This document shows positions 4,790-25,410 of a stretch of DNA of 25,410 nt, in pieces. Source of the stretch: Gemmatimonadota bacterium (GTDB lineage Bacteria; Gemmatimonadota; Gemmatimonadetes; Gemmatimonadales; GWC2-71-9). Both the position numbers and the translations under genes were made by a program. The number at the start of each line of letters is the position of its first letter. The stretch's first letter is position 1. The notes beneath the pieces are model-generated. The model had not been told where the DNA came from. It did not search any database and was given only the letters and a program-made list of their open reading frames with translations. The stretch spans positions 1 to 25,410 of the forward strand of contig JAEHDT010000197.1 in the NCBI GenBank assembly GCA_016880225.1, in the 5' to 3' direction.

Positions 4790-7459
4790 GTGCCGGCGCT
4801 CGAGCGGTGGGTGTACTTCTTCGGGCCCGGCCGGGCCGACGGCTCCGCCGCCATGCGCGACATCCTCGGCGGCAAGGGTGCCGGGCTCGCCGAGATGGCG
4901 AACCTGGGTCTGCCGGTGCCGCCCGGGTTCACGATCTCGGCGAAACTGTGCATCGCCTACCTCGAGCACGGCACCTTCCCCGACGAGCTGCGTGAGGAGG
5001 TGGACCGTCACCTGAAGCAACTCGAGCAGGCGACGAAGAAGCGGTTCGGCGACGCCCGCAACCCCCTGCTCGTGTCGGTTCGCTCCGGCGCCGCCGTCTC
5101 GATGCCCGGGATGATGGAGACGATCCTGAACCTCGGGCTGAACGACCAGACCGTGCAGGGGCTCGTCAGCGGCTCGAAGAATCCCCGGTTCGCGTTCGAC
5201 TCCTACCGGCGGTTCGTCCAGATGTACGGCGACGTGGTGTTCGACCTCGGCAAGGACCCGTTCGAGGAGGTGCTGGCCGAGGCGAAAGCGCGGCGACGGG
5301 TGCAGCGCGATATCGACCTGCCGGTGGACGACCTGCAGGCCCTGGTGCGGGAATTCAAGTCCATCATCCAGGCCAAGTCAGGCCTCCCCTTCCCCGAAGA
5401 GCCGTCGGCCCAGCTGTGGGGCGCCATCGAGGCCGTCTTCAAGAGCTGGCGGACGCGCCGGGCGGCCGACTACCGCCGGGTCCACGGCATTCCGGACGAC
5501 CTGGGGACCGCCGTCAACGTGGTGGCCATGGTCTACGGCAACATGGGCGACGACTGCGGGACCGGCGTCGCCTTCACGCGCGACTGCCGCACCGGCGAGG
5601 CCGTGCTGAACGGGGACTTCCTCACGAACGCCCAGGGCGAGGACGTCGTCTCCGGCGCCCGCACGCCCGAGCCCATCGCGCGCATGAAGCGCGGCAAGTT
5701 CGCCAAGGTGTACCGCGAGCTCGAGCGCATCGCGGCCAAGCTGGAGCGGCACTTCAAGGACGTTCAGGACATCGAATTCACGTTCGAGCACGGCCGGCTG
5801 TACATGCTGCAGACCCGGCGCGCGCAGCGCACCGGCCTGGCGGCGGTGCGGATCGCGGTGGAGATGGTCGCCGAGCGCCGCATTACGGAGGACGAGGCGG
5901 TGCAGCGCGTACCACCGCAGGACCTGGACCAAGTGTTCCATCCGATGGTGGACCCCCGGGCCGCGGTGACCCTCGTGGCGAAAGGCCTGCCCGCGTCCCC
6001 CGGCGCCGCCATAGGCGAGGCGGTATTCGACGCGGACGAGGCCGAAACCCTCGCCAAGCGTGGCCGCCCGGTGATCCTGGTGCGTCCCGAGACGAGCCCG
6101 GAGGACTTCCACGGCATCGTGGCCGCAAAGGCCGTCCTCACCGCACGGGGCGGCATGACCAGCCATGCCGCGATCGTGGCCCGCGGCATGGGCAAGACCT
6201 GCGTGGTGGGAGCGACGGAGATCGAGGTGGATCTAAGGACGGGCGGCGGTCGGTTCCGCGCCAACGGCCGCGTCGTGAAGAAGGGCCAGGTCATCACGGT
6301 GGACGGCACCACCGGCCGGGTGCTGCTCGGCGCCGTGAAGCTGGTGGAGCCCAAGCTGGGCGCGCACTACGCGAAGCTGATGGCCTGGGCCGACGCCCGC
6401 CGCCGCCTGCGCGTGCGCGCCAACGCCGACACCCCCGCCGACGCGGCGCGGGCCCGCGAGCTCGGCGCCGAGGGGATCGGCCTGTGCCGCACGGAGCACA
6501 TGTTCTTTCAGGGCGACCGGATCACGGCGATGCGCGAGATGATCGTCGCGCCCGACGCCGGCGGGCGGCGCCGCGCGCTCGCGAAGCTGCTCCCGATGCA
6601 ACGCGCCGACTTCGAGGGGATGTTCGAGGCGATGGCCGGCTACCCCGTCACGATCCGGCTGCTCGATCCGCCGCTCCACGAGTTCCTGCCACACACCCGC
6701 GATGAGCTCGCGACCCTGGCGCGCGCCATGAAGCGGCCGGCCACGGAGCTGCAGCGCCTGGTCGCGTCGCTCACGGAGGCCAACCCGATGCTCGGCCATC
6801 GCGGCTGCCGCCTGGGCATCACTTATCCCGAGATCACCGAGATGCAGGCGCGGGCGATCTTCGAGGCGGCCTGCCGCGTGGTGGGGCGCGGCAAGAAAGT
6901 CACGGTGGAAGTGATGATTCCGCTCGTGGCCATCGTGGAAGAGCTGCGGCACCAGACCGAGATCGTGCGGCGGGTGGCGCGGGAGGTGTTTCAGGCCGAG
7001 GGACGGGCGGTGCCGTACATGGTAGGCACGATGATCGAGCTGCCGCGCGCGGCGCTTTGCGCCGACGAGATCGCCCGCCAGGCGGAGTTCTTCTCCTTCG
7101 GGACCAACGACCTCACCCAGACCACGTTCGGACTGTCGCGCGACGACGCCGGACGGTTCCTGCCGTATTACGTGGAGCACGGCATCCTGAAAGACGACCC
7201 CTTCCAGGTTCTGGACCAGGAGGGGGTCGGGAAGCTCGTCGAGCTGGCGGTCCGGCTGGGCCGGGGCAGCCGTCACGACTTGAAGACCGGTATCTGCGGC
7301 GAGCACGGCGGCGAGCCCGCATCGGTGAAGTTCTGCCACCGCGCGGGCTTGAATTACGTGTCGTGCTCCCCGTTCCGGGTCCCCATCGCCCGCCTCGCCG
7401 CGGCCCAGGCCGCGCTCGAGGAGCAGGGCGTAATCAACCGGACCAAGGCGACCGTCTAG
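4790..7459 (+). CDS. ppdK: Pyruvate, phosphate dikinase
   Basis: Motifs LGGKGAGLAEM, VSVRSGA, NAQGEDVVSG, GGMTSHAA (phospho-His with regulatory Thr), GLCRTEHMF, FSFGTNDLTQ and GICGEHGG; 889 aa. Confidence 0.98.
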   Translation: MPALERWVYFFGPGRADGSAAMRDILGGKGAGLAEMANLGLPVPPGFTISAKLCIAYLEHGTFPDELREEVDRHLKQLEQATKKRFGDARNPLLVSVRSGAAVSMPGMMETILNLGLNDQTVQGLVSGSKNPRFAFDSYRRFVQMYGDVVFDLGKDPFEEVLAEAKARRRVQRDIDLPVDDLQALVREFKSIIQAKSGLPFPEEPSAQLWGAIEAVFKSWRTRRAADYRRVHGIPDDLGTAVNVVAMVYGNMGDDCGTGVAFTRDCRTGEAVLNGDFLTNAQGEDVVSGARTPEPIARMKRGKFAKVYRELERIAAKLERHFKDVQDIEFTFEHGRLYMLQTRRAQRTGLAAVRIAVEMVAERRITEDEAVQRVPPQDLDQVFHPMVDPRAAVTLVAKGLPASPGAAIGEAVFDADEAETLAKRGRPVILVRPETSPEDFHGIVAAKAVLTARGGMTSHAAIVARGMGKTCVVGATEIEVDLRTGGGRFRANGRVVKKGQVITVDGTTGRVLLGAVKLVEPKLGAHYAKLMAWADARRRLRVRANADTPADAARARELGAEGIGLCRTEHMFFQGDRITAMREMIVAPDAGGRRRALAKLLPMQRADFEGMFEAMAGYPVTIRLLDPPLHEFLPHTRDELATLARAMKRPATELQRLVASLTEANPMLGHRGCRLGITYPEITEMQARAIFEAACRVVGRGKKVTVEVMIPLVAIVEELRHQTEIVRRVAREVFQAEGRAVPYMVGTMIELPRAALCADEIARQAEFFSFGTNDLTQTTFGLSRDDAGRFLPYYVEHGILKDDPFQVLDQEGVGKLVELAVRLGRGSRHDLKTGICGEHGGEPASVKFCHRAGLNYVSCSPFRVPIARLAAAQAALEEQGVINRTKATV

Positions 7460-18162: not shown

Positions 18163-19803
18163 GTGACCCCACAGAAGCTGATTCGATCGCTGCGCGTACC
18201 CTTCAGCGGTCCCACAACAACCGGGAGCCGGGCCAGCGGCCTCCCCCCCGACCTGCTGCGCGAGGCGTCCCGACGATTGGGGCTACTCGCGCTTGTCACG
18301 ATGGGTTTGGCGGTCATCGACCTCGCCCTCGGGCAGATGCTGTTCCCGCAGCTCCACGTCGCGTGGCCGGCCTGGCTCACCCCGGTTGTCGTGGGCATCG
18401 CGCTCGTGTCGCTGGGCGTGTTCCTGTACACACGCCGCAGCCGCGGTCGTCCAGAATCCTTCATAACGCTCGGGCTCGCCTACGAGGTGGCCGTGGCCGC
18501 CGCCCTTGGATTCATCAACCACCTGCTGGCTCCGCCCGAAGGGTTGACGGCCGGGCCGACTCTATCACGGATCAGTTTCATCGTGCTGATCTTCCCGGCG
18601 TTCGTGCCGAGTACCCCACGCGCGACGCTCGTGACCGCGCTGATCGCGGCATCGATGGATCCGCTCGCGATGGCCACGGTGAGCGCCGTGCGGCACTTGG
18701 GCGTGCCCGCAGGCCATCTGCTGTGGATGCACATCACGAATTACTTCAGCGTCGGGGTTGCGGTGGTGATCTCCCACATCATCACGCGTCTGGGGCGTGA
18801 GGTGCGCGATGCGCGCGACCTGGGAAGCTACCGGCTGGGAGAGCTGCTCGGCCGGGGCGGCATGGGCGAGGTATACGTGGCGCACCATCGCATGCTGGCC
18901 CGGCCGGCGGCCATCAAGCTCATTCGACCCGAGAAGCTCGAAGGGGAAGGCGGCGATCAAGCCCTGCGCGTCGTGCAACGCTTCAAGCGGGAAGCGCAGG
19001 CGGCGGCCAGCTTGCGCTCGCCGCACACGATCGAGCTGTACGACTTCGGGGAGACCGACGACGGTACGCTGTACTTCGTGATGGAGCTGCTCGACGGCAT
19101 CGACCTTGATTCCTTCGTCGACCGCTTCGGGCCGATGCCTCCGGCTCGTGCGGTGCACGTGCTACGCCAGGCATGCGATTCGCTCGCCGAAGCGCACACC
19201 CGCGGGCTGATTCATCGCGACGTGAAGCCCGCGAACGTTCACCTCTGCCGCATGGGCCTGCTACACGATTTCGTGAAGGTGCTGGATTTCGGAATCGTGA
19301 AGTCGCAACACAACCTGGCAACCGGACCGTCGATCGCGACCGCGGCCGATCGCATGATCGGAACACCGGCCTTCATGCCGCCGGAGATGGCACTCGGGGG
19401 CGTCGTGGACGGGCGGGCGGACATCTACGGGCTCGGCTGCCTAGGCTACTGGCTCCTCACGGGTGAGCTGGTATTCGACGGCGCGACCACGTACGAAGTC
19501 GTCGCGCAGCACATCAACGCCGTGCCCGTGCCACCATCCACCCGGAGCGGCCTGCCGATTCCCGTGACGCTCGATGACGTCATCCTCGACTGCCTCGCCA
19601 AGGACCCGGAGCGCCGACCGCCGGACGGGCTCGAGCTGTCTCGCCGCCTTGCCACCTCCGTGCTGCACGAGCCGTGGTCCGAGCAGGATGCGGAACGCTG
19701 GTGGCGGACCCACCTCCCACGTCCGCGTGGCGAGCCGCCCGCAGCGGCGAGCGAACAGGTGCTCGCTACCCGGCCCTCGCGAAGGATCATTCCTTGGGTC
19801 TGA
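18163..19803 (+). CDS. Hanks-type Ser/Thr protein kinase with an N-terminal multi-pass membrane domain
   Basis: About six hydrophobic segments precede GRGGMGEVY, AAIK, HRDVKPAN, DFG, GTPAFMPPE and DIYGLG. Confidence 0.93.
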   Translation: MTPQKLIRSLRVPFSGPTTTGSRASGLPPDLLREASRRLGLLALVTMGLAVIDLALGQMLFPQLHVAWPAWLTPVVVGIALVSLGVFLYTRRSRGRPESFITLGLAYEVAVAAALGFINHLLAPPEGLTAGPTLSRISFIVLIFPAFVPSTPRATLVTALIAASMDPLAMATVSAVRHLGVPAGHLLWMHITNYFSVGVAVVISHIITRLGREVRDARDLGSYRLGELLGRGGMGEVYVAHHRMLARPAAIKLIRPEKLEGEGGDQALRVVQRFKREAQAAASLRSPHTIELYDFGETDDGTLYFVMELLDGIDLDSFVDRFGPMPPARAVHVLRQACDSLAEAHTRGLIHRDVKPANVHLCRMGLLHDFVKVLDFGIVKSQHNLATGPSIATAADRMIGTPAFMPPEMALGGVVDGRADIYGLGCLGYWLLTGELVFDGATTYEVVAQHINAVPVPPSTRSGLPIPVTLDDVILDCLAKDPERRPPDGLELSRRLATSVLHEPWSEQDAERWWRTHLPRPRGEPPAAASEQVLATRPSRRIIPWV

Positions 19804-22420
19804 GCAGGTCCCGGTACGGCGCGTAGTCGCGCAGCGACTCGAACGCGAGATCGGCGTGCAGCCCGAAGGCCTGCGGGTACCCCCGGGTGAACGCGTCCCG
19901 GAGCAAGGCCACGGCGGCGTCGCGCTCGCCCAGCAACGCATGGATGCGCGCCCGCCACACAGCGGGCCGGCCGAAGACGTACGGCCGCTGCACGCGCGCG
20001 AGCGTCTGGTCCACGCGCAGGGCCTGGTCTCGGTTCCCCTGGCGCGCGGCGACTGCGCCCAGGTACCCGAGGTAGTCCAACGGGTCCCACATGTCGCCCA
20101 TCACGGCGACGCTCGCGGGCGAGTCGCTCCGGCCGGGTTCCCCCCGTGCCGCCAGGCGCTCGAATTCGCGTTGCGCGTCCGCGAGCCGTCCCGCCAGGTA
20201 GTCCACGAGCGCCACACGAACCTGGTGCGCCTCGGTTGCCGCTTCCGCCGGCGGACGCGCCGCCAGCCAGTCGCGAGCCTGCGCGAGCGTCGTGCCGCCC
20301 TCCGCGGCGTGGCCGTGTGCCCGCAGCTCAAGGGCGGCCAGCAGCAGCACCTCCGCCGGCGTCCACCCGTGCATGGGAGGAAAGTTCGCGCTCACGGCGA
20401 CCCGGCGGCTCATCTCCTCCGTTCGGCCGAGCGCCGCGAGGGCCCGCACCTCGGTGGCGAGAATCTCCAGATTGCCGGGGAACCGGCGCACACCTTCGAG
20501 CGCCTGCTTCAGCTCGCGGTTGTGGTCGCCCACCAGGTGCAAGGCGCTAGTCAGGTTGTACCAGTACACCCACCAGCCGCGTGTGAAGCCGCGGTCCGGG
20601 CCGAGGGACTCGAGCGCGTCCACGGCCTCGCGCGGACGATTGAGCGCCATGGCGTCTTCCGCGACCAGGTACAGCGCTTCAGAGCCGGGCGCGAGATTCG
20701 CCATTGCGCGCGCCGCCCGGAGCGCCTCCACCCCATCGCCACGGCACGTCGCCAGCACCCATGCCAGGTACGAGCGGTCGAGCGGGGCGAACCGGTCGGC
20801 GTGCCGCTCCAGGGCGTGACCGATGGACTCCGCTGCGGCCCACTGCCCCACATTCATGTGAGCGTTCGCGGCGAAGATCAGCGGCAGCCGGAACGTCGTG
20901 TCCACGGCCGCCGCGTGCTCGAAGTGCGCGATCGCCCCCGCCATGTCGAATAGGACGAACCGGTCCAACCCCTCGATGAATTCCTGATATGCCTGGAAGT
21001 TCGGCGGCTGGCTCGCCATCGTCGCCCAGCGGCTGAGCCGGGAGTCGAACAGCGTCGCCAGCGCGGCCATGACGCGCTGGCGCAGCGTCTCGACCGCGCC
21101 GAGCGGCTGAGCGAGCGGCCCGGCGACCGGCTCGAGCGCCCGCAGGAGCTTCCCGTCCGCCGCCGCCGAGATCTGGACCTGGAAGCGTACGCTGTCCGCC
21201 TGGCGGTAGTAGGCGCCCGACACGACCGTTCCGGCGCCGGTCTCCCGGCCCAGGGCCCGGAGTCCCGCCGCGTCGAGGTAGCCGGGAGCGTGTTCTCCCG
21301 ACGCGATAATCACGGACATCGAAGGGACCACTTCGACGAGACCCGTTTGCGCGAGCCCCTGTGTCACCCAGTCGGCCGCCATGTGACCGAGGTTGTCGAG
21401 CGACGTGTCCCCCGTACGGTTCTCGAGCACGGCCACGACCACCCGGCGCTCGATCAGGCCGGACGCCGGACGCCGCACCGCCAGGACCACGGCGACGGCG
21501 GCTGCGACCACGACCCCGCCCGCGAGCGCGAAGCGGCGGCCGCGGCGGCCCGCGAACAGGCTGCGCGTCGGCACGCTCGTGCGATGGGCCGGTCCCCCGA
21601 GCGCCGCCGCGAACTCCGCCGCCGATGGAAACCGGTCGTCGGGCCGCGGCGCGAGCGCCCGCGAGACGGCGTGCTTGACGGCCCGGACGACCCCGGTTTG
21701 CGCGCCCCGCAGCCCGCGGCTCGACTCGAGCGCCGCCCAGTTGTGGACCCCGCGGTCCACTTCGCGCCGCACCGGCGTTTCGCCCGCCAGCATCTCGAAC
21801 AGCACGCACCCGAGGCTGTAGACGTCCGTACGGGCGTCGAGCTCCATGCTGCCCATCGCCTGCTCGGGGCTCATGTAGCCCGGCGAGCCGATGGCCTGGC
21901 CGGTCTGCGTGAGGGTCATGGTGCCGGCGGCGCTGATCGCGCGCGCGATGCCGAAGTCGGCGACGATCGCGTGTTCCCCCGAAAGGAGGATGTTCTCGGG
22001 TTTGATGTCGCGGTGGATGATCCCCTGTCCGTGCGCGAAGGCGAGCGCGTCCGCCACGTCGCGTGCGATGTGGACCGCGTCGTCGAGCGGCAGCCTCTTC
22101 TGCCGGATCAAGCGATGCCGCAGCGACTCCCCCTCGACGTACGGCATGACGTAGTAGAAGAGGCCGCCGGCTTCTCCGGCCGAGAAGATCGGCACGATGT
22201 GGGGATGGCTGAGGTTCGACGAAAGGTCCACTTCGCGGATGAACCGCTCCCGCAGGAGACGCGTGGATAGCTCCGGGTCGAGCACCTTGATTGCCACCCG
22301 GCGATGCGGATGCTGCTCCACCGCCAGGTACACCCGGGCCATCCCGCCCGCCCCGATCTCGCGTGCGACGTCGTAGCGGGGTGCGAGAGCCTCGCGCAAG
22401 GAGTCGAGGACGTCGAGCAT
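19787..22420 (-). CDS. Hanks-type Ser/Thr kinase + single TM + TolB-N/FlgO-like domain + TPR-like repeats
   Basis: Motifs GAGGMARVY, VAIK, HRDIKPEN, DFG and GSPGYMSPE are followed by a TM segment (FALAGGVVVAAAVAVVLAV), VVVAVLENRTGD...WVTQGL and helical repeats. The gene overlaps the neighbouring kinase by 17 nt at the 3' ends. Confidence 0.93.
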   Translation of the reverse strand: MLDVLDSLREALAPRYDVAREIGAGGMARVYLAVEQHPHRRVAIKVLDPELSTRLLRERFIREVDLSSNLSHPHIVPIFSAGEAGGLFYYVMPYVEGESLRHRLIRQKRLPLDDAVHIARDVADALAFAHGQGIIHRDIKPENILLSGEHAIVADFGIARAISAAGTMTLTQTGQAIGSPGYMSPEQAMGSMELDARTDVYSLGCVLFEMLAGETPVRREVDRGVHNWAALESSRGLRGAQTGVVRAVKHAVSRALAPRPDDRFPSAAEFAAALGGPAHRTSVPTRSLFAGRRGRRFALAGGVVVAAAVAVVLAVRRPASGLIERRVVVAVLENRTGDTSLDNLGHMAADWVTQGLAQTGLVEVVPSMSVIIASGEHAPGYLDAAGLRALGRETGAGTVVSGAYYRQADSVRFQVQISAAADGKLLRALEPVAGPLAQPLGAVETLRQRVMAALATLFDSRLSRWATMASQPPNFQAYQEFIEGLDRFVLFDMAGAIAHFEHAAAVDTTFRLPLIFAANAHMNVGQWAAAESIGHALERHADRFAPLDRSYLAWVLATCRGDGVEALRAARAMANLAPGSEALYLVAEDAMALNRPREAVDALESLGPDRGFTRGWWVYWYNLTSALHLVGDHNRELKQALEGVRRFPGNLEILATEVRALAALGRTEEMSRRVAVSANFPPMHGWTPAEVLLLAALELRAHGHAAEGGTTLAQARDWLAARPPAEAATEAHQVRVALVDYLAGRLADAQREFERLAARGEPGRSDSPASVAVMGDMWDPLDYLGYLGAVAARQGNRDQALRVDQTLARVQRPYVFGRPAVWRARIHALLGERDAAVALLRDAFTRGYPQAFGLHADLAFESLRDYAPYRDLLRPKE

Positions 22421-22426
22421 GCGCGC

Positions 22427-22435
22427 AAGTTAGCA
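22427..22435 (-). promoter_or_regulatory. Extended -10 element (TG-C-TAACTT) 6 nt before the kinase ATG, suggesting a leaderless promoter
   Basis: The minus strand reads GACTGCTAACTTGCGCGC-ATG with no SD. The -10 hexamer is identical to that of ssrA. Confidence 0.6.
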
Positions 22436-22543
22436 GTCACGGCCCGGCCAGGCGAGCGAGATCTTGCCTACTGGCCGATACGCGTCCGCGCGCTACAATT
22501 CCTCAACACAACGCCGGGGGGTCGTCTGCGGAGCTCTCCCTAC

Positions 22544-23461
22544 GTGCGCCTGGCGGCGTACTATCTCGTACTCGGTATCGCCGTGTGGCTCCTGATCGCG
22601 GCGTTTCCTGCGATCCCCCAGCTGCTCGAGCGCTTCCGGGAGATCTCGGTGCTCGGCCTCGCCGCCGCGCGCCGCGGACGCGACCTCGAGGAGGTCGTGG
22701 GGCCCGCCGGCCAGGTCCTGTCGCAGGGCCAGTGGGCTTTCGTGACCCTGCTGTCGATGCTCACCGCGCTGCTGCTGGTGCTCCCGGTCGCCCGAGTGTA
22801 CATGATCACCAAGCAGCACTCGGGTTACGACCAGTCCGTCGTCCAGACGGTCATCATCCTGCCGATGACGGTGGCCGGCACCGTCATTCTCGTGCAGAAC
22901 AGTCTGGCCCTGGCATTTGCGCTCGCCGCGATCGTGGCGGCGGTGCGATTCCGCAACACGCTCAAGGACACGAAGGATGCCGTGTACATTTTCCTGGCGC
23001 TTGCGGTCGGCGTCGCCGCGGGCGTGTTCGCGCCGACGGTCGCCGCGGTGATGTCCGTCGTGTTCAACGTCGTGGTCCTGAGTCTTTGGCACTTCAACGT
23101 CGGCAACATCTACGCCGATCGCCTCGGCGCCGAGCGCGCCGGGCGCCTGCAACCCCACCTCGAGCGCAACGCGCGGCAGGACAAGAAGCCGTTCACCGGA
23201 GCGTTATTGATCCGCGCCGCCCGGATCGAGCCCGTGCAGCGCGCGGCGGAAACGTTGCTCGAAGAGCGCGTCAAGCGCTGGAAGCTCGCGGAAGTTGTTC
23301 CCTCCGATGGCGGGACGTCCGTGCTCGAGTACCTCATCAGGAGCAAGGACCCGGAGGTCGGAGCCGCGCTGATCGATGCCCTCCGAACCAGGGCTGATCC
23401 GGACATCGTGGCCGTGGAGTTTCGCTCGTTGCAGGGGCTGAAGCCCGGGGAGCGGCCGTGA
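22544..23461 (+). CDS. DUF4956 family membrane protein (MgtC-like TM region plus C-terminal ACT-like domain)
   Basis: Signature VQNSLALAFALAAIVAAVRFRNTLKDTKDAVYIFLALAVGVAAG. The start is uncertain: GTG 22544 was chosen (GGAG upstream, TACAAT at 22494-22499) because the ORF-track start at 22304 overlaps the opposite-strand kinase. Confidence 0.85.
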   Translation: MRLAAYYLVLGIAVWLLIAAFPAIPQLLERFREISVLGLAAARRGRDLEEVVGPAGQVLSQGQWAFVTLLSMLTALLLVLPVARVYMITKQHSGYDQSVVQTVIILPMTVAGTVILVQNSLALAFALAAIVAAVRFRNTLKDTKDAVYIFLALAVGVAAGVFAPTVAAVMSVVFNVVVLSLWHFNVGNIYADRLGAERAGRLQPHLERNARQDKKPFTGALLIRAARIEPVQRAAETLLEERVKRWKLAEVVPSDGGTSVLEYLIRSKDPEVGAALIDALRTRADPDIVAVEFRSLQGLKPGERP

Positions 23462-24621
23462 ACCCGCGGGCGTCGCCGCGCGGCGCCCTCGTCGTGTTGC
23501 TGTGGGTCGCAACGGCGTGTGGCTCCGCGCGAGCGCTGGACACAGCCGCGCCAGGGGTCGCGCTGGCGCCGGCGTCGCAGATCGATGTGACGCTCTTTCT
23601 GGTCGGTGATGCGGGCGTCCCCGCGGCGCCGCCCGACTCGGAGCCGGTGCTCGTCGCCCTGCGCGCAGCGGCCGGCGCCGTCCCGAGCCCCGTGATCGTG
23701 TTTCTTGGCGACAACGTCTATCCCCGCGGGATGCCAGATTCGGGCGCCGCAGGCAGGGCCGAAGCGGAGCGCAGGCTCTCGGCACAGCTCGCGGTGCTGC
23801 ACGCCACTGGGGCGCGTGGGCTGTTCGTCCCCGGCAATCACGATTGGGACCGGGAGGGGCCGGGAGGCTGGGAGGCCGTGCGGCGGGAGGGGCGATTCAT
23901 CGCTCAGAGCGGAGGGTCTCGCGTGGCGCTGCTGCCGAGAGACGGCTGCCCCGGCCCCGCCATCGTGGATGTGGGGGCCGCCGTCCGCCTCGTCGCGCTC
24001 GATACGCAATGGTGGCTGCATGGCGCGGCGAAGCCGCAGCATCCCGGCTCGTCGTGCCCCGCCGACTCCGAGGGCGAGGTGATCGATTCGCTCCGGGCTG
24101 CGCTCCGGACAGCAGGGACGCGCGCGGTGGTCGTCGTTGCCCACCATCCGTTGCTCTCCGGGGGACCACACGGCGGCCACTTCGGCTGGCAGGACCACGT
24201 GTTTCCGCTGCGGAACCTCAAGCCGTGGCTGTGGCTTCCCCTCCCGCTCGTCGGCTCGGCATACCCGATCGCCCGCGAGAACGGCATCTCGAGTCAGGAC
24301 GCCTCGAGCACCGCGTACCGGTGGATGCGCGCTGCGCTGGACAGTGCCTTCGCCGCTCGGCCCCCGCTCATCTACGCGGCGGGACATGACCACGCCCTCC
24401 AAGTGATTGCGGGAACCAGCGCTCGCTATGAGATCGTGAGCGGGGCCGGGACCTTCGGGCATCACAGCGGCGTCGCCGCGCTCGACGGCACGCGGTTCGC
24501 GCAGAGCGCCAGCGGCTTCATGCGAGTCGACGTGCTGCACGACGGCCGCGCCCGCCTGGACGTGACGGTCGTCGACGCAGGCGGCAAGGGGGCGGAGGCC
24601 TTCGGGTTGTGGCTCAACTGA
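23458..24621 (+). CDS. Exported calcineurin-like metallophosphoesterase of purple-acid-phosphatase type, probable lipoprotein
   Basis: All five PAP-type motifs are present: GDAG (DxG), GDNVY (GDxxY), GNHD, VAHH and GHDH. The N-terminal signal ends in VATA|C. The GTG start overlaps the upstream TGA. Confidence 0.92.
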   Translation: MNPRASPRGALVVLLWVATACGSARALDTAAPGVALAPASQIDVTLFLVGDAGVPAAPPDSEPVLVALRAAAGAVPSPVIVFLGDNVYPRGMPDSGAAGRAEAERRLSAQLAVLHATGARGLFVPGNHDWDREGPGGWEAVRREGRFIAQSGGSRVALLPRDGCPGPAIVDVGAAVRLVALDTQWWLHGAAKPQHPGSSCPADSEGEVIDSLRAALRTAGTRAVVVVAHHPLLSGGPHGGHFGWQDHVFPLRNLKPWLWLPLPLVGSAYPIARENGISSQDASSTAYRWMRAALDSAFAARPPLIYAAGHDHALQVIAGTSARYEIVSGAGTFGHHSGVAALDGTRFAQSASGFMRVDVLHDGRARLDVTVVDAGGKGAEAFGLWLN

Positions 24622-25410
24622 GCCGGCTCTTTGCGATCGGCGCCGCGCTCGCGGTGGTGCTTGCGCCGCATGGGGTCGCCGGCCAGACGACCGGTCCGCC
24701 GGGCCCCCCGCCTGCGCGCCAGACGGTGGCGGCGGGGATGCACTACCGCGCGGGCTGGCTCCATCGCCTACTGCTCGGCGCCCACTATCGCGACCTCTGG
24801 GCCACGCCCGTCGAGGTCGAGGTGCTGGATCTCTCCGGGTTCGCCGGCGGACTGACGCCGATGAGCTGCGGCGGCCGTCGCCAGACCAAGTCGCTCCGCT
24901 TCCAGGGAGGAGACGGGCGGCAGTACGTGTTCCGCTCCGTGGACAAGGATCCCACCCTGGCGCTCCCCCCGGAGCTGCGGGCCACGTTCGCCCGCGATCT
25001 CATCCAGGACCAGATCAGCTCGGCGCACCCCGGCGGCCCGCTCGTCGTGGCGCCGCTGCTGGATGCGGCGGGCGTGCTGCACGCCGAGCCGCGTCTCGCC
25101 CTCCTCCCCGACGACCCACGGCTCGGCCGCGTCGACTGCGTGCGCCCCGGCTTCAAGCTAGGAATGATCGAGGAGCGCCCCACCGAGCCTCCCGACAACG
25201 ATATGGGGTTCGCGGGTGCCGCCGAGCTGGCCGGGACCAGCAGGCTGTTCGAGCATCTGGAGCACGACTCGCGGCACCGGGTCGACTCGCGCGCATTCCT
25301 CGCCGCCCGGTTGATGGATGTCTACATCGGCGACTGGGACCGACACCACGATCAGTGGCGCTGGGCGCGTTTCGACTCGGGCGCCGTGCACACGTGGCGA
25401 CCCATCCCGC
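24609..25410 (+). CDS. Exported protein with an atypical-kinase-like domain, probably the N-terminal part of an Omp85/BamA-TamA-family protein (partial, runs off the window)
   Basis: Not in the ORF track because there is no stop in the window. Frame +3 is open for 267 codons from GTG 24609 (GGAGG upstream): MAQLSRLFAIGAALAVVLAPHGVAGQ...HYRDLWATPV...GGRRQTKSLRF...YVFRSVDKDP...QDQISSAHP...GMIEERP...RLMDVYIGDWDRHHDQWRW...WRPIP. Confidence 0.85.
   Translation, partial: MAQLSRLFAIGAALAVVLAPHGVAGQTTGPPGPPPARQTVAAGMHYRAGWLHRLLLGAHYRDLWATPVEVEVLDLSGFAGGLTPMSCGGRRQTKSLRFQGGDGRQYVFRSVDKDPTLALPPELRATFARDLIQDQISSAHPGGPLVVAPLLDAAGVLHAEPRLALLPDDPRLGRVDCVRPGFKLGMIEERPTEPPDNDMGFAGAAELAGTSRLFEHLEHDSRHRVDSRAFLAARLMDVYIGDWDRHHDQWRWARFDSGAVHTWRPIP

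Follow-up and report, generated by a model that had tools for sequence, protein, structure and literature searches.

The 3′ end of a 25,410-nucleotide (nt) contig from a soil/wetland bacterium of the Gemmatimonadales carries three tightly packed genes, encoding a DUF4956 membrane protein (g1), a purple-acid-phosphatase-like enzyme (g2), and a protein that joins a kinase-like domain to an outer-membrane barrel (g3). The window analyzed here is this complete contig (C9); the genome is 65% complete and has a G+C content of about 69%. The three open reading frames (ORFs) are co-directional. g1 (22544..23461, + strand) starts with GTG and encodes 305 amino acids (aa), g2 (23458..24621, +) encodes 387 aa, and g3 (24609..25410, +) is open at the contig end, with the first 267 of its 856 codons in the window. 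g1 and g2 share a GTGA overlap of 4 nt, g2 and g3 overlap by 13 nt, and GGAG-type Shine-Dalgarno motifs precede the starts of g2 and g3. An earlier note, made from the letters of this DNA, had described these overlaps as well as an inner-membrane DUF4956 protein, a lipoprotein of purple acid phosphatase (PAP) type, and a signal-peptide protein with a DRH-type loop; all of this was borne out by the ORFs, Pfam matches, and alignments.

The remainder of g3 was recovered from a second contig of the same genome. Contig C9 ends in 127 nt that recur without a mismatch at one end of contig C96, on its reverse strand, and C96 itself overlaps contig C233 of this genome exactly over 91 nt; both are typical assembly-graph overlaps. 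Continued on the reverse strand of C96 (2336..441), the joined frame gives a protein of 856 aa ending in ...AGFAY. The join is corroborated by full-length public homologues of 856–860 aa (P0002 is 95–97% identical on both sides of the join, P0003 92%) and by the independent contigs L005–L007, which show the same gene order as the joined locus. A fourth gene (g4), encoding the polyphosphate kinase PPK1 fused to a CYTH domain, begins 3 nt past the g3 stop codon, in this genome as well as in L005 and L007. g1, g2, and g3 are therefore the first three genes of a four-gene operon with the order DUF4956, PAP-like phosphatase, g3, and CYTH-PPK1. Because this next gene, outside the window, encodes a CYTH-fused PPK1, the idea voiced in the earlier note that polyphosphate (polyP) might be involved is strengthened.

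The product of g1 matched Pfam PF16316 (DUF4956) with 44.1 bits (gathering cut-off 30.6, E = 2.3e-11), and with 40.5 bits in the genome scan. Its 305-aa form is identical to the called protein P0392. More than 1700 homologues were found, and PF16316 is carried by all 120 that were listed. Its hydropathy profile shows five to six hydrophobic segments and some 90 aa of soluble tail, and g1 is accordingly predicted to be a polytopic inner-membrane protein. A loop between hydrophobic segments, R135-F-R-N-T-L-K-D-T-K-D145 (22946..22978, +), is invariant in 24 homologues. The C-terminal soluble domain (residues ~215–305; 23186..23458, +; isoelectric point (pI) 8.3) shows alternating strand-like and helix-like conservation in alignment A5. 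Look-ups for DUF4956 in the ESM Atlas returned neither a structure nor an informative neighbor other than DUF4956 proteins, apart from a faint overlap with MgtC.

For g2, a hydrophobic leader ends at a putative lipobox cysteine, Cys21 (23518..23520, +), a residue shared by at least 90% of 25 homologues; the protein is predicted to be exported, probably as a lipoprotein. Purple acid phosphatases are defined by the pattern DxG/GDxxY/GNH(D/E)/VxxH/GHxH. In g2, the corresponding blocks are (i) G50-D51-x-G53 (23605–23616), (ii) G84-D85-x-x-Y88 (23707–23721), (iii) G126-N127-H128-D129 (23833–23844), (iv) H229-H230 (24142–24147), and (v) G309-H310-x-H312 (24382–24393), all on the + strand and all invariant in the 25 homologues, including the ligands D51, D85, Y88, N127, H229/H230, H310, and H312. 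Mammalian PAP (ACP5, uteroferrin) proteins were the only significant solved relatives of the family profile (E = 2.5e-7). With the single sequence, the Pfam Metallophos match was weak (19.9 versus a cut-off of 21.5 bits, E = 1e-3); homologues are named metallophosphoesterase, and many carry PF00149. On its profile and motif blocks, g2 is predicted to be a PAP-type binuclear metallophosphoesterase. Its five motif blocks and seven metal ligands are those of the mammalian enzyme (PDB 1ute), from which it differs by inserts of about 80 aa, a conserved cysteine pair (C164/C200), and the lipoprotein leader.

The third protein was modeled with AlphaFold2 on P0002, which is 97% identical to g3, together with 74 homologues (predicted local distance difference test (pLDDT) 92, predicted template modeling score 0.87). 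Its layout comprises a signal peptide (residues 1–25), a kinase-like domain (31–385), a beta-rich linker (386–517), and an Omp85 barrel (518–856). The signal peptide (24609..24683, +), helical and of low pLDDT in the model, is a Sec-type leader with the sequence MAQLSRLFAIGAALAVVLAPHGVAG, ending in VAG and followed by Q. Residues 31–385 form a mixed alpha/beta domain, which reached a pLDDT of 93 when folded alone. Its best solved match in Foldseek was CotH of Bacillus cereus (PDB 5jda; E = 4e-5, probability 1.00), followed by CtkA, PI4KII-alpha, HipA, and Fam20C. An exhaustive VIA search gave CotH at Z = 14.8 (252 aa, root-mean-square deviation 4.3), PI4KII-alpha at Z = 14.2, and CtkA at Z = 13.2; 42 chains had Z values of at least 8, and all 50 listed rows were kinases except AcsD at rank 42. 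Likewise, the first matches outside its own family in AFDB and the ESM Atlas belonged to the CotH and HipA families. The N-terminal domain is thus predicted to have a protein-kinase-like fold resembling CotH and PI4KII, in agreement with the kinase fold that the earlier note had expected of the third ORF.

The domain also has a set of highly conserved residues. Across 74 sequences from several phyla, there is no variation at K113, D242, R245, D269, or D271 and very little at D134, D244, H246, or Q249. A catalytic-loop-like motif, G241-D-W-D244-R-H246-x-x-Q249-W250, is invariant or nearly invariant in these homologues and reads GDWDRHHDQW in g3 (25329..25358, +). Lys113 (24945..24947, +; 74/74), the putative ATP/phosphate-binding lysine, follows an N-lobe strand (E105–110) and precedes a helix (H127–138), and the presumed metal-binding D269-R-D271 sits just past the end of the window. 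Judged by secondary-structure order and conservation, K113, D134, the loop, and D269/D271 would correspond to the beta3 lysine, the acidic residue of helix alphaC, the catalytic loop, and the metal-binding aspartates of kinases. The spacing of 25–27 residues from D244 to D269/D271 resembles that of the catalytic D228 and D251 of Bacillus subtilis CotH. The invariance of K113, D242, R245, D269, and D271 across phyla, together with the near-invariance of D244, H246, and Q249, points to an active enzyme. Five arginines (R109, R234, R245, R367, and R368) are also invariant and the domain is basic (pI 8.7); so many invariant arginines would suit a phosphate-rich ligand.

The domain appears to share with its best structural matches, CotH (5jda) and the type II PI 4-kinases, the order of an N-lobe lysine, a helix with an acidic residue, a catalytic-loop aspartate, and a second aspartate about 25 residues further on. 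It differs from them in having only 9–14% identity and no sequence-profile match, a loop Q instead of N, an extra beta-hairpin between the Asp motifs, and a predicted extracytoplasmic position on an outer-membrane barrel. Pfam and NCBIfam gave no match to the N-terminal domain, and sequence and profile searches with it against the PDB yielded chance matches only; a likeness of DRHxDQW to the PI4KII catalytic loop is accordingly putative at sequence level.

At the C-terminus, the model shows sixteen long strands (residues 518–852). Foldseek matched them to Sam50, TamA, and BamA (E = 6e-12 to 1e-9), the barrel profile matched BamA (E = 1.6e-9), and the Pfam family ShlB (ShlB/FhaC) was reached with 23.7 bits (cut-off 22.7, E = 3.9e-5). 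A loop-6 motif, T-V-R-G-F, occupies residues 759–763, of which R761 and G762 are nearly invariant, and the barrel is basic (pI 9.3). The C-terminus of g3 is therefore best described as a predicted 16-strand Omp85 barrel, as had been suspected before the downstream sequence was available. POTRA domains, for which the earlier note had suggested a test along with the barrel, were not detected: there was no Pfam match to them in g3, and the linker model is all-beta, with short strands, no helices, and one GGxGxD-like motif, lacking the beta-alpha-alpha-beta-beta pattern. In the model, the kinase-like fold takes the place of the usual Omp85 POTRA domains. NCBI names the g3 protein BamA/TamA family; because POTRA domains are absent, we do not file it as BamA, TamA, TpsB, or type Vd. 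With the type Vd (PlpD) and type Vb (TpsB/FhaC) systems it has in common an N-terminal enzyme-type domain joined to a 16-strand barrel that reaches the ShlB cut-off. Unlike in those systems, there is no POTRA domain, and g2 has no TPS domain and carries its own lipoprotein-type leader.

The g4 protein, whose start on C96 is read only through the contig join, has 1064 aa. It contains the PP_kinase_N, middle, C1, and C2 domains (E = 2.7e-32 to 2.2e-69 for the genome's own copy, L004) behind an N-terminal extension of about 380 aa. Such extensions matched Pfam CYTH in 11 of 11 orthologues of the long form (best E = 1e-6; 26.0 bits in L005, cut-off 23.2), and a profile of the extension matched the Escherichia coli triphosphatase YgiF (E = 0.0037). 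From these domain matches, g4 is predicted to be a long PPK1 paralogue with an N-terminal CYTH (triphosphate-tunnel) domain. Between CYTH and PP_kinase_N lies a further conserved region of about 170 aa (residues ~200–380; 8200–8740 in L005), with the motifs ...GSGEEACR...LEVWLARR... and no Pfam or PDB match.

Relatives of the g3 N-terminal domain are widespread. The family comprised 3127 clusters at 50% identity, 1471 of them with E < 1e-30, and most members have about 850–880 aa and a barrel. A scan of GTDB species genomes with the motif D[WR]DRHx[DGK]QW confirmed at least 591 relatives. They occur in Gemmatimonadota (including Longimicrobium), Ignavibacteria-like lineages, Calditrichaceae, Acidobacteriota, and, among the Bacteroidota, Hymenobacter, Rufibacter, Nibribacter, Larkinella, Spirosoma, Pontibacter, Flectobacillus, and Chitinophagaceae.

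In Bacteroidota (Cytophagales, Hymenobacteraceae), Metallophos, kinase-like, and Omp85 domains are fused in proteins of 1200–1335 aa, which confirms the proposal that g2 and g3 resemble the halves of a Bacteroidota fusion. Because the two are fused there, g2 and g3 are expected to work together (Rosetta-stone evidence). The same architecture was described as the 'Metallo' subfamily of Omp85 proteins, PF00149 plus an Omp85 barrel, and discussed by analogy to PlpD (Heinz and Lithgow 2014; PMC4104836). In that study, PF00149 was taken for a metalloprotease, the kinase-like domain of about 360 aa went unnoticed, and no link to PPK1 or DUF4956 was reported. In contrast to the fused Bacteroidota relatives, the operon studied here has the architecture split into two genes. 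One Bacteroidota locus (L080, 9839–13810) shows three consecutive ORFs, namely a kinase-like one (hmm 3–465), a Metallophos ORF, and a barrel (hmm 463–820); this order stems either from a permutation of the domains or from a frameshift within one gene.

To place the operon in context, 80 fetched loci, many of them on short metagenomic contigs, were surveyed with hidden Markov models built from the loci. Among the 46 Gemmatimonadota loci (again with many short contigs), 19 had g2, 20 had g1, and 12 had PPK1, nine of these directly adjacent and in the long CYTH form. The 20 Ignavibacteria-like loci included one with g2, none with g1, and four with PPK1, two as convergent neighbors. In the 11 Bacteroidota loci, g2 was present eight times (seven fused and one separate), g1 once, and PPK1 four times, typically convergent and with one gene between it and the kinase-Omp85 gene. 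In total, about 24 of 83 loci, spanning Gemmatimonadota, Ignavibacteria, and Bacteroidota, had PPK1 no more than 10 kb away from the kinase-Omp85 gene, in co-directional, convergent/inverted, and permuted arrangements. For a single-copy gene in genomes of 2.3–5.9 Mb, the chance expectation within 10 kb would be well under 1%, ignoring phylogeny. Two loci, of Nibribacter (L071, 7137–8402 and 13779–16467) and Ignavibacteriae (L075, 12616–16451), have the kinase-Omp85 gene beside PPK1, a small His_Phos_1 (SixA-like) gene, and a gene for an HD + PycTM membrane protein. This His_Phos_1/HD-PycTM block may stand in for DUF4956 where the latter is missing.

A sample of 61 Gemmatimonadota genomes, with counts that take no account of phylogeny, gave a sharper picture. 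The long PPK1 was present in 15 of the 61, several of which also keep a PPK1 of normal length, and DUF4956 stood directly upstream of it on the same strand in 12 of the 15. Kinase-Omp85 genes were found in 16 genomes; 12 of these also have DUF4956, in nine cases within 5 kb and on the same strand. In four genomes (G000, G040, G047, and G032), DUF4956 and the long PPK1 flank the kinase gene, and in G036 it comes after both. Altogether, adjacency and order of the module were seen in the genome's own locus, L005–L010, L069, G040, G047, G032, and G036. In five other genomes (G046, C2:29324–33089; G065; G044; G051; G059), one of them of the window's genus, DUF4956 is followed directly by the long PPK1 and kinase-Omp85 is missing altogether, so the core pair also occurs by itself. 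Given this pattern over the 61 genomes, DUF4956 and CYTH-PPK1 form the conserved core, to which kinase-Omp85 is added, alone or together with the phosphatase.

A similar gene set is known from other bacteria. Papers on Gram-positive pel loci describe contiguous accessory genes whose products, of unknown function, are a CotH-like kinase that is secreted, a polyP polymerase resembling VTC, and a membrane protein of the DUF4956 family. The association of DUF4956 with VTC and CotH, named in the earlier note, proved to be real also in the genomes at hand. In 14 control genomes, DUF4956 and VTC were present in exactly the same three, all of which have CotH as well, and a member of another Gemmatimonadota family, G016, has the classical form with packed genes for DUF4956 (227 aa), CotH (864 aa), and VTC (245 aa) (L090, G016:C98, 4968–10192). 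The CotH protein of G016 carries a beta-helix, and a 365-aa ORF without Pfam match precedes the triad.

The operon shares with this triad DUF4956 as the first gene, the tight packing, and the order of membrane protein, exported kinase-fold protein, and cytoplasmic triphosphate-tunnel polyP enzyme. It differs in that its kinase, which the Pfam CotH model misses, continues into an Omp85 barrel, that CYTH-PPK1 replaces the stand-alone VTC, and that a PAP-like phosphatase is added. Because the order matches the triad, with each part exchanged for an analogue and a phosphatase added, we read the operon as a diderm variant of the DUF4956/kinase/polyP-polymerase module, in which polyP synthesis would be coupled to phosphoryl chemistry in the envelope. 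We give this reading a probability of roughly 45%; the triad with which the operon is compared is itself functionally uncharacterized.

One possible course of events can be outlined as follows. CYTH-PPK1 would make polyP at the inner membrane, where DUF4956 could dock it and pass polyP, or a signal about polyP, across the membrane in analogy to VTC. The N-terminal domain of g3 would point into the periplasm, as N-terminal regions do in other Omp85 proteins, and would use or bind an ATP-independent donor, namely polyP, in modifying proteins, lipids, or glycans of the envelope. Reversal of the mark, or trimming of polyP, would then fall to the PAP-like phosphatase. In eukaryotes, the VTC complex is reported to couple polyP synthesis to translocation (PMC9911596; bioRxiv 2023.01.27.525886). 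As in that complex, a triphosphate-tunnel polyP enzyme is here encoded together with a dedicated polytopic membrane protein; in contrast to it, DUF4956 is not a VTC1-type membrane domain, the polymerase is PPK1, and translocation is suggested by analogy only. A full bacterial counterpart of VTC, with CYTH-PPK1 and DUF4956 delivering polyP, the Omp85-borne kinase phosphorylating the envelope with polyP rather than ATP, and the PAP-like enzyme as eraser, appears doubtful to us.

The periplasm has no ATP, and we know of no periplasmic protein or lipid kinase system that has been established in diderm bacteria. Gemmatimonadota first became known from a polyphosphate-accumulating isolate. If the full scheme with polyP as kinase donor holds, the operon would encode a reversible phosphorylation system in the ATP-free periplasm of diderm bacteria. 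The genetic coupling of the kinase-Omp85 family to a dedicated PPK1 makes polyP a testable candidate for the energy and phosphoryl source. The operon also offers a first functional handle on DUF4956, the widespread DUF4956-CotH-VTC triad, the 'Metallo' Omp85 subfamily, and the CYTH-fused PPK1 paralogue. Even if the idea of polyP as donor fails, a kinase-fold/phosphatase pair on an Omp85 barrel would constitute a new outer-membrane architecture.

Several observations weigh against reading the operon as a variant of the polyP-polymerase module. At the level of the kinase, the usual loop Asn is replaced by Gln (Q249), and Pfam CotH (PF08757) misses g3, matching only two true CotH genes across the 61 Gemmatimonadota genomes. 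A comparison of the N-domain profile with a small, two-sequence CotH profile by hhalign gave a probability of 0.45%. Membership of the g3 domain in the CotH family was accordingly rejected by sequence, with the likeness confined to the fold. The domain may be either periplasmic or displayed on the surface, and the transport role given to DUF4956 is putative. At the level of gene neighborhoods, several PPK1 neighbors are convergent and so not co-transcribed with kinase-Omp85, and four Gemmatimonadota genomes have kinase-Omp85 without DUF4956. The linkage anticipated in the earlier note does recur in other genomes, but linkage to DUF4956 was seen only in Gemmatimonadota: a check of five Bacteroidota/Ignavibacteria genomes that have kinase-Omp85 beside PPK1 detected no DUF4956. 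Since DUF4956 is missing from some kinase-Omp85 genomes, the parts can work without each other, and the three-gene linkage is not universal. The literature searched, with subscription papers outside it, contained no functional study of the four proteins or their homologues. In favor of the reading, there is modest evidence of expression: three soil RNA-seq libraries yielded contigs 95–99% identical over g1, g2, and g3, and one RNA-library contig of 899 nt spans the g1/g2 junction, but these contigs may include DNA carry-over.

Among other explanations, display in the manner of type V secretion comes first, even if we regard it as rather unlikely. Here, the barrel would export the phosphatase and the kinase-like domain to the cell surface, or anchor them there, for phosphate scavenging, as in PlpD or TpsB. 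The phosphatase, acting in trans in Gemmatimonadota and in cis in Bacteroidota, would free phosphate from organic or condensed phosphates, and PPK1, merely co-regulated as part of a phosphate-starvation regulon, would store the captured phosphate as polyP. That the barrel reaches the ShlB/FhaC cut-off speaks for this, as do the existence of a fused, passenger-like Metallophos-X-barrel architecture and the likening of the 'Metallo' subfamily to PlpD (PMC4104836). The convergent PPK1 neighbors would also fit co-regulation better than a single machine. In addition, the gene upstream of kinase-Omp85 in an Ignavibacteriae locus (L075, 9112–9978) encodes a 289-aa protein with SdiA-regulated/phytase-like matches instead of a Metallophos protein. 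However, types Vb and Vd require POTRA, which is absent from g3 with its all-beta linker. Display would also leave unexplained the strictly conserved kinase-type catalytic set, the dedicated CYTH-PPK1 paralogue beside a housekeeping PPK1, the tight pairing of DUF4956 with PPK1, and the parallel to DUF4956-CotH-VTC.

An envelope lipid or lipopolysaccharide kinase working independently of polyP is, in our judgment, unlikely. A PI4KII/WaaP-like domain at the inner face of the outer membrane would phosphorylate a lipid or glycan head-group with a nucleotide or lipid-linked donor, the phosphatase would remove the mark, and PPK1 and DUF4956 would be neighbors on account of regulation, for instance in phosphate or magnesium homeostasis. 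Lipid and sugar kinases do rank high among the fold matches (PI4KII-alpha at Z = 14.2, PI4KIII-beta, MavQ, and WaaP), yet the top match is a protein kinase, CotH. The tethering of the domain to a membrane barrel and a faint feature-level relation of DUF4956 to MgtC-type membrane regulators would both suit such a kinase, whereas the periplasm is not known to contain a nucleotide donor. Moreover, the gene order matches the polyP-polymerase triad, and DUF4956 and PPK1 enclose the kinase gene, with gene overlaps or a spacing of 3 nt.

Export or anchoring of polyP, with the barrel as pore or anchor at the cell surface, the kinase-like domain as a catalytically silent polyP binder, and the phosphatase setting chain length, seems improbable. 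The invariant arginines and the basic character of N-domain and barrel (pI 8.7 and 9.3), the linkage to PPK1 and DUF4956, and the membership of the yeast endopolyphosphatases Ppn1 and Ppn2 in the metallophosphoesterase superfamily would all be compatible with it. In solved structures, however, Omp85 barrels are sealed toward the exterior, and they function as insertases or translocators of proteins; the strict conservation of the Asp/Lys catalytic set exceeds what binding needs, and these organisms are not known to carry polyP at their surface.

Chance packing, or local synteny within one lineage, of genes without a common function, with the barrel protein as a divergent BamA/TamA-type assembly factor as its NCBI name implies and as the many kinase-Omp85 loci lacking g1, g2, or PPK1 within 10 kb might suggest, is very improbable in view of the overlapping start and stop codons, the recurrence of the neighborhood in different arrangements over three phyla, the Rosetta-stone value of the g2/g3 fusion, the position of DUF4956 directly upstream of 12 of 15 long PPK1 genes, and a chance expectation well below 1% for a single-copy gene within 10 kb.

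Upstream of the operon, a divergent intergenic region of 123 nt (22421..22543) presumably contains its promoter. No match to the sigma-70 consensus was found upstream of g1, a result that says little in this phylum. Three terminator-like hairpins within the operon genes were judged to be due to chance. Beyond the intergenic region lie two convergent genes for Hanks-type Ser/Thr kinases (18163–19800, +, and 19787–22420, −). The nearer one (19787..22420, −; 877 aa) has a kinase domain with the motifs HRDIKPEN and DFG, one transmembrane segment, and a large TPR-like extracytoplasmic part. The same divergent Hanks-type kinase (Pfam Pkinase) stands upstream of the operon in L005 and L007, and in L014 genes for two kinases of this type are interspersed among g2, g1, and PPK1. 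Hanks-type kinases are possible regulators of the module, and the 877-aa protein is a conserved neighbor of the operon rather than an established part of it.

DNA nearly identical to positions 22300–25410 was present in sediment, wetland, and soil metagenomes from 13 studies (runs X1–X20). Tandem or near-tandem kinase-Omp85 paralogues were noted in L010, L031, L039, L049, L066, and L068, and some metagenome-assembled genomes (for example G058 and G024) have two or three copies. Papers on a Riemerella anatipestifer 'metallophosphoesterase' and on OMP76/Omp85 concern unrelated proteins (a type IX secretion system effector and vitronectin binders) and were set aside. Elsewhere on the contig, 15 kb away and with no evidence of linkage, a gene for the pyrophosphate-linked enzyme pyruvate phosphate dikinase lies at 4790–7456 (+). 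An 832-aa outer-membrane efflux protein (Pfam OEP; 15526–18024, −), whose N-terminal region matches ABC_sub_bind (E = 1.3e-6), is encoded next to genes for an MFP protein (14415–15554) and an RND pump (10818–14399).

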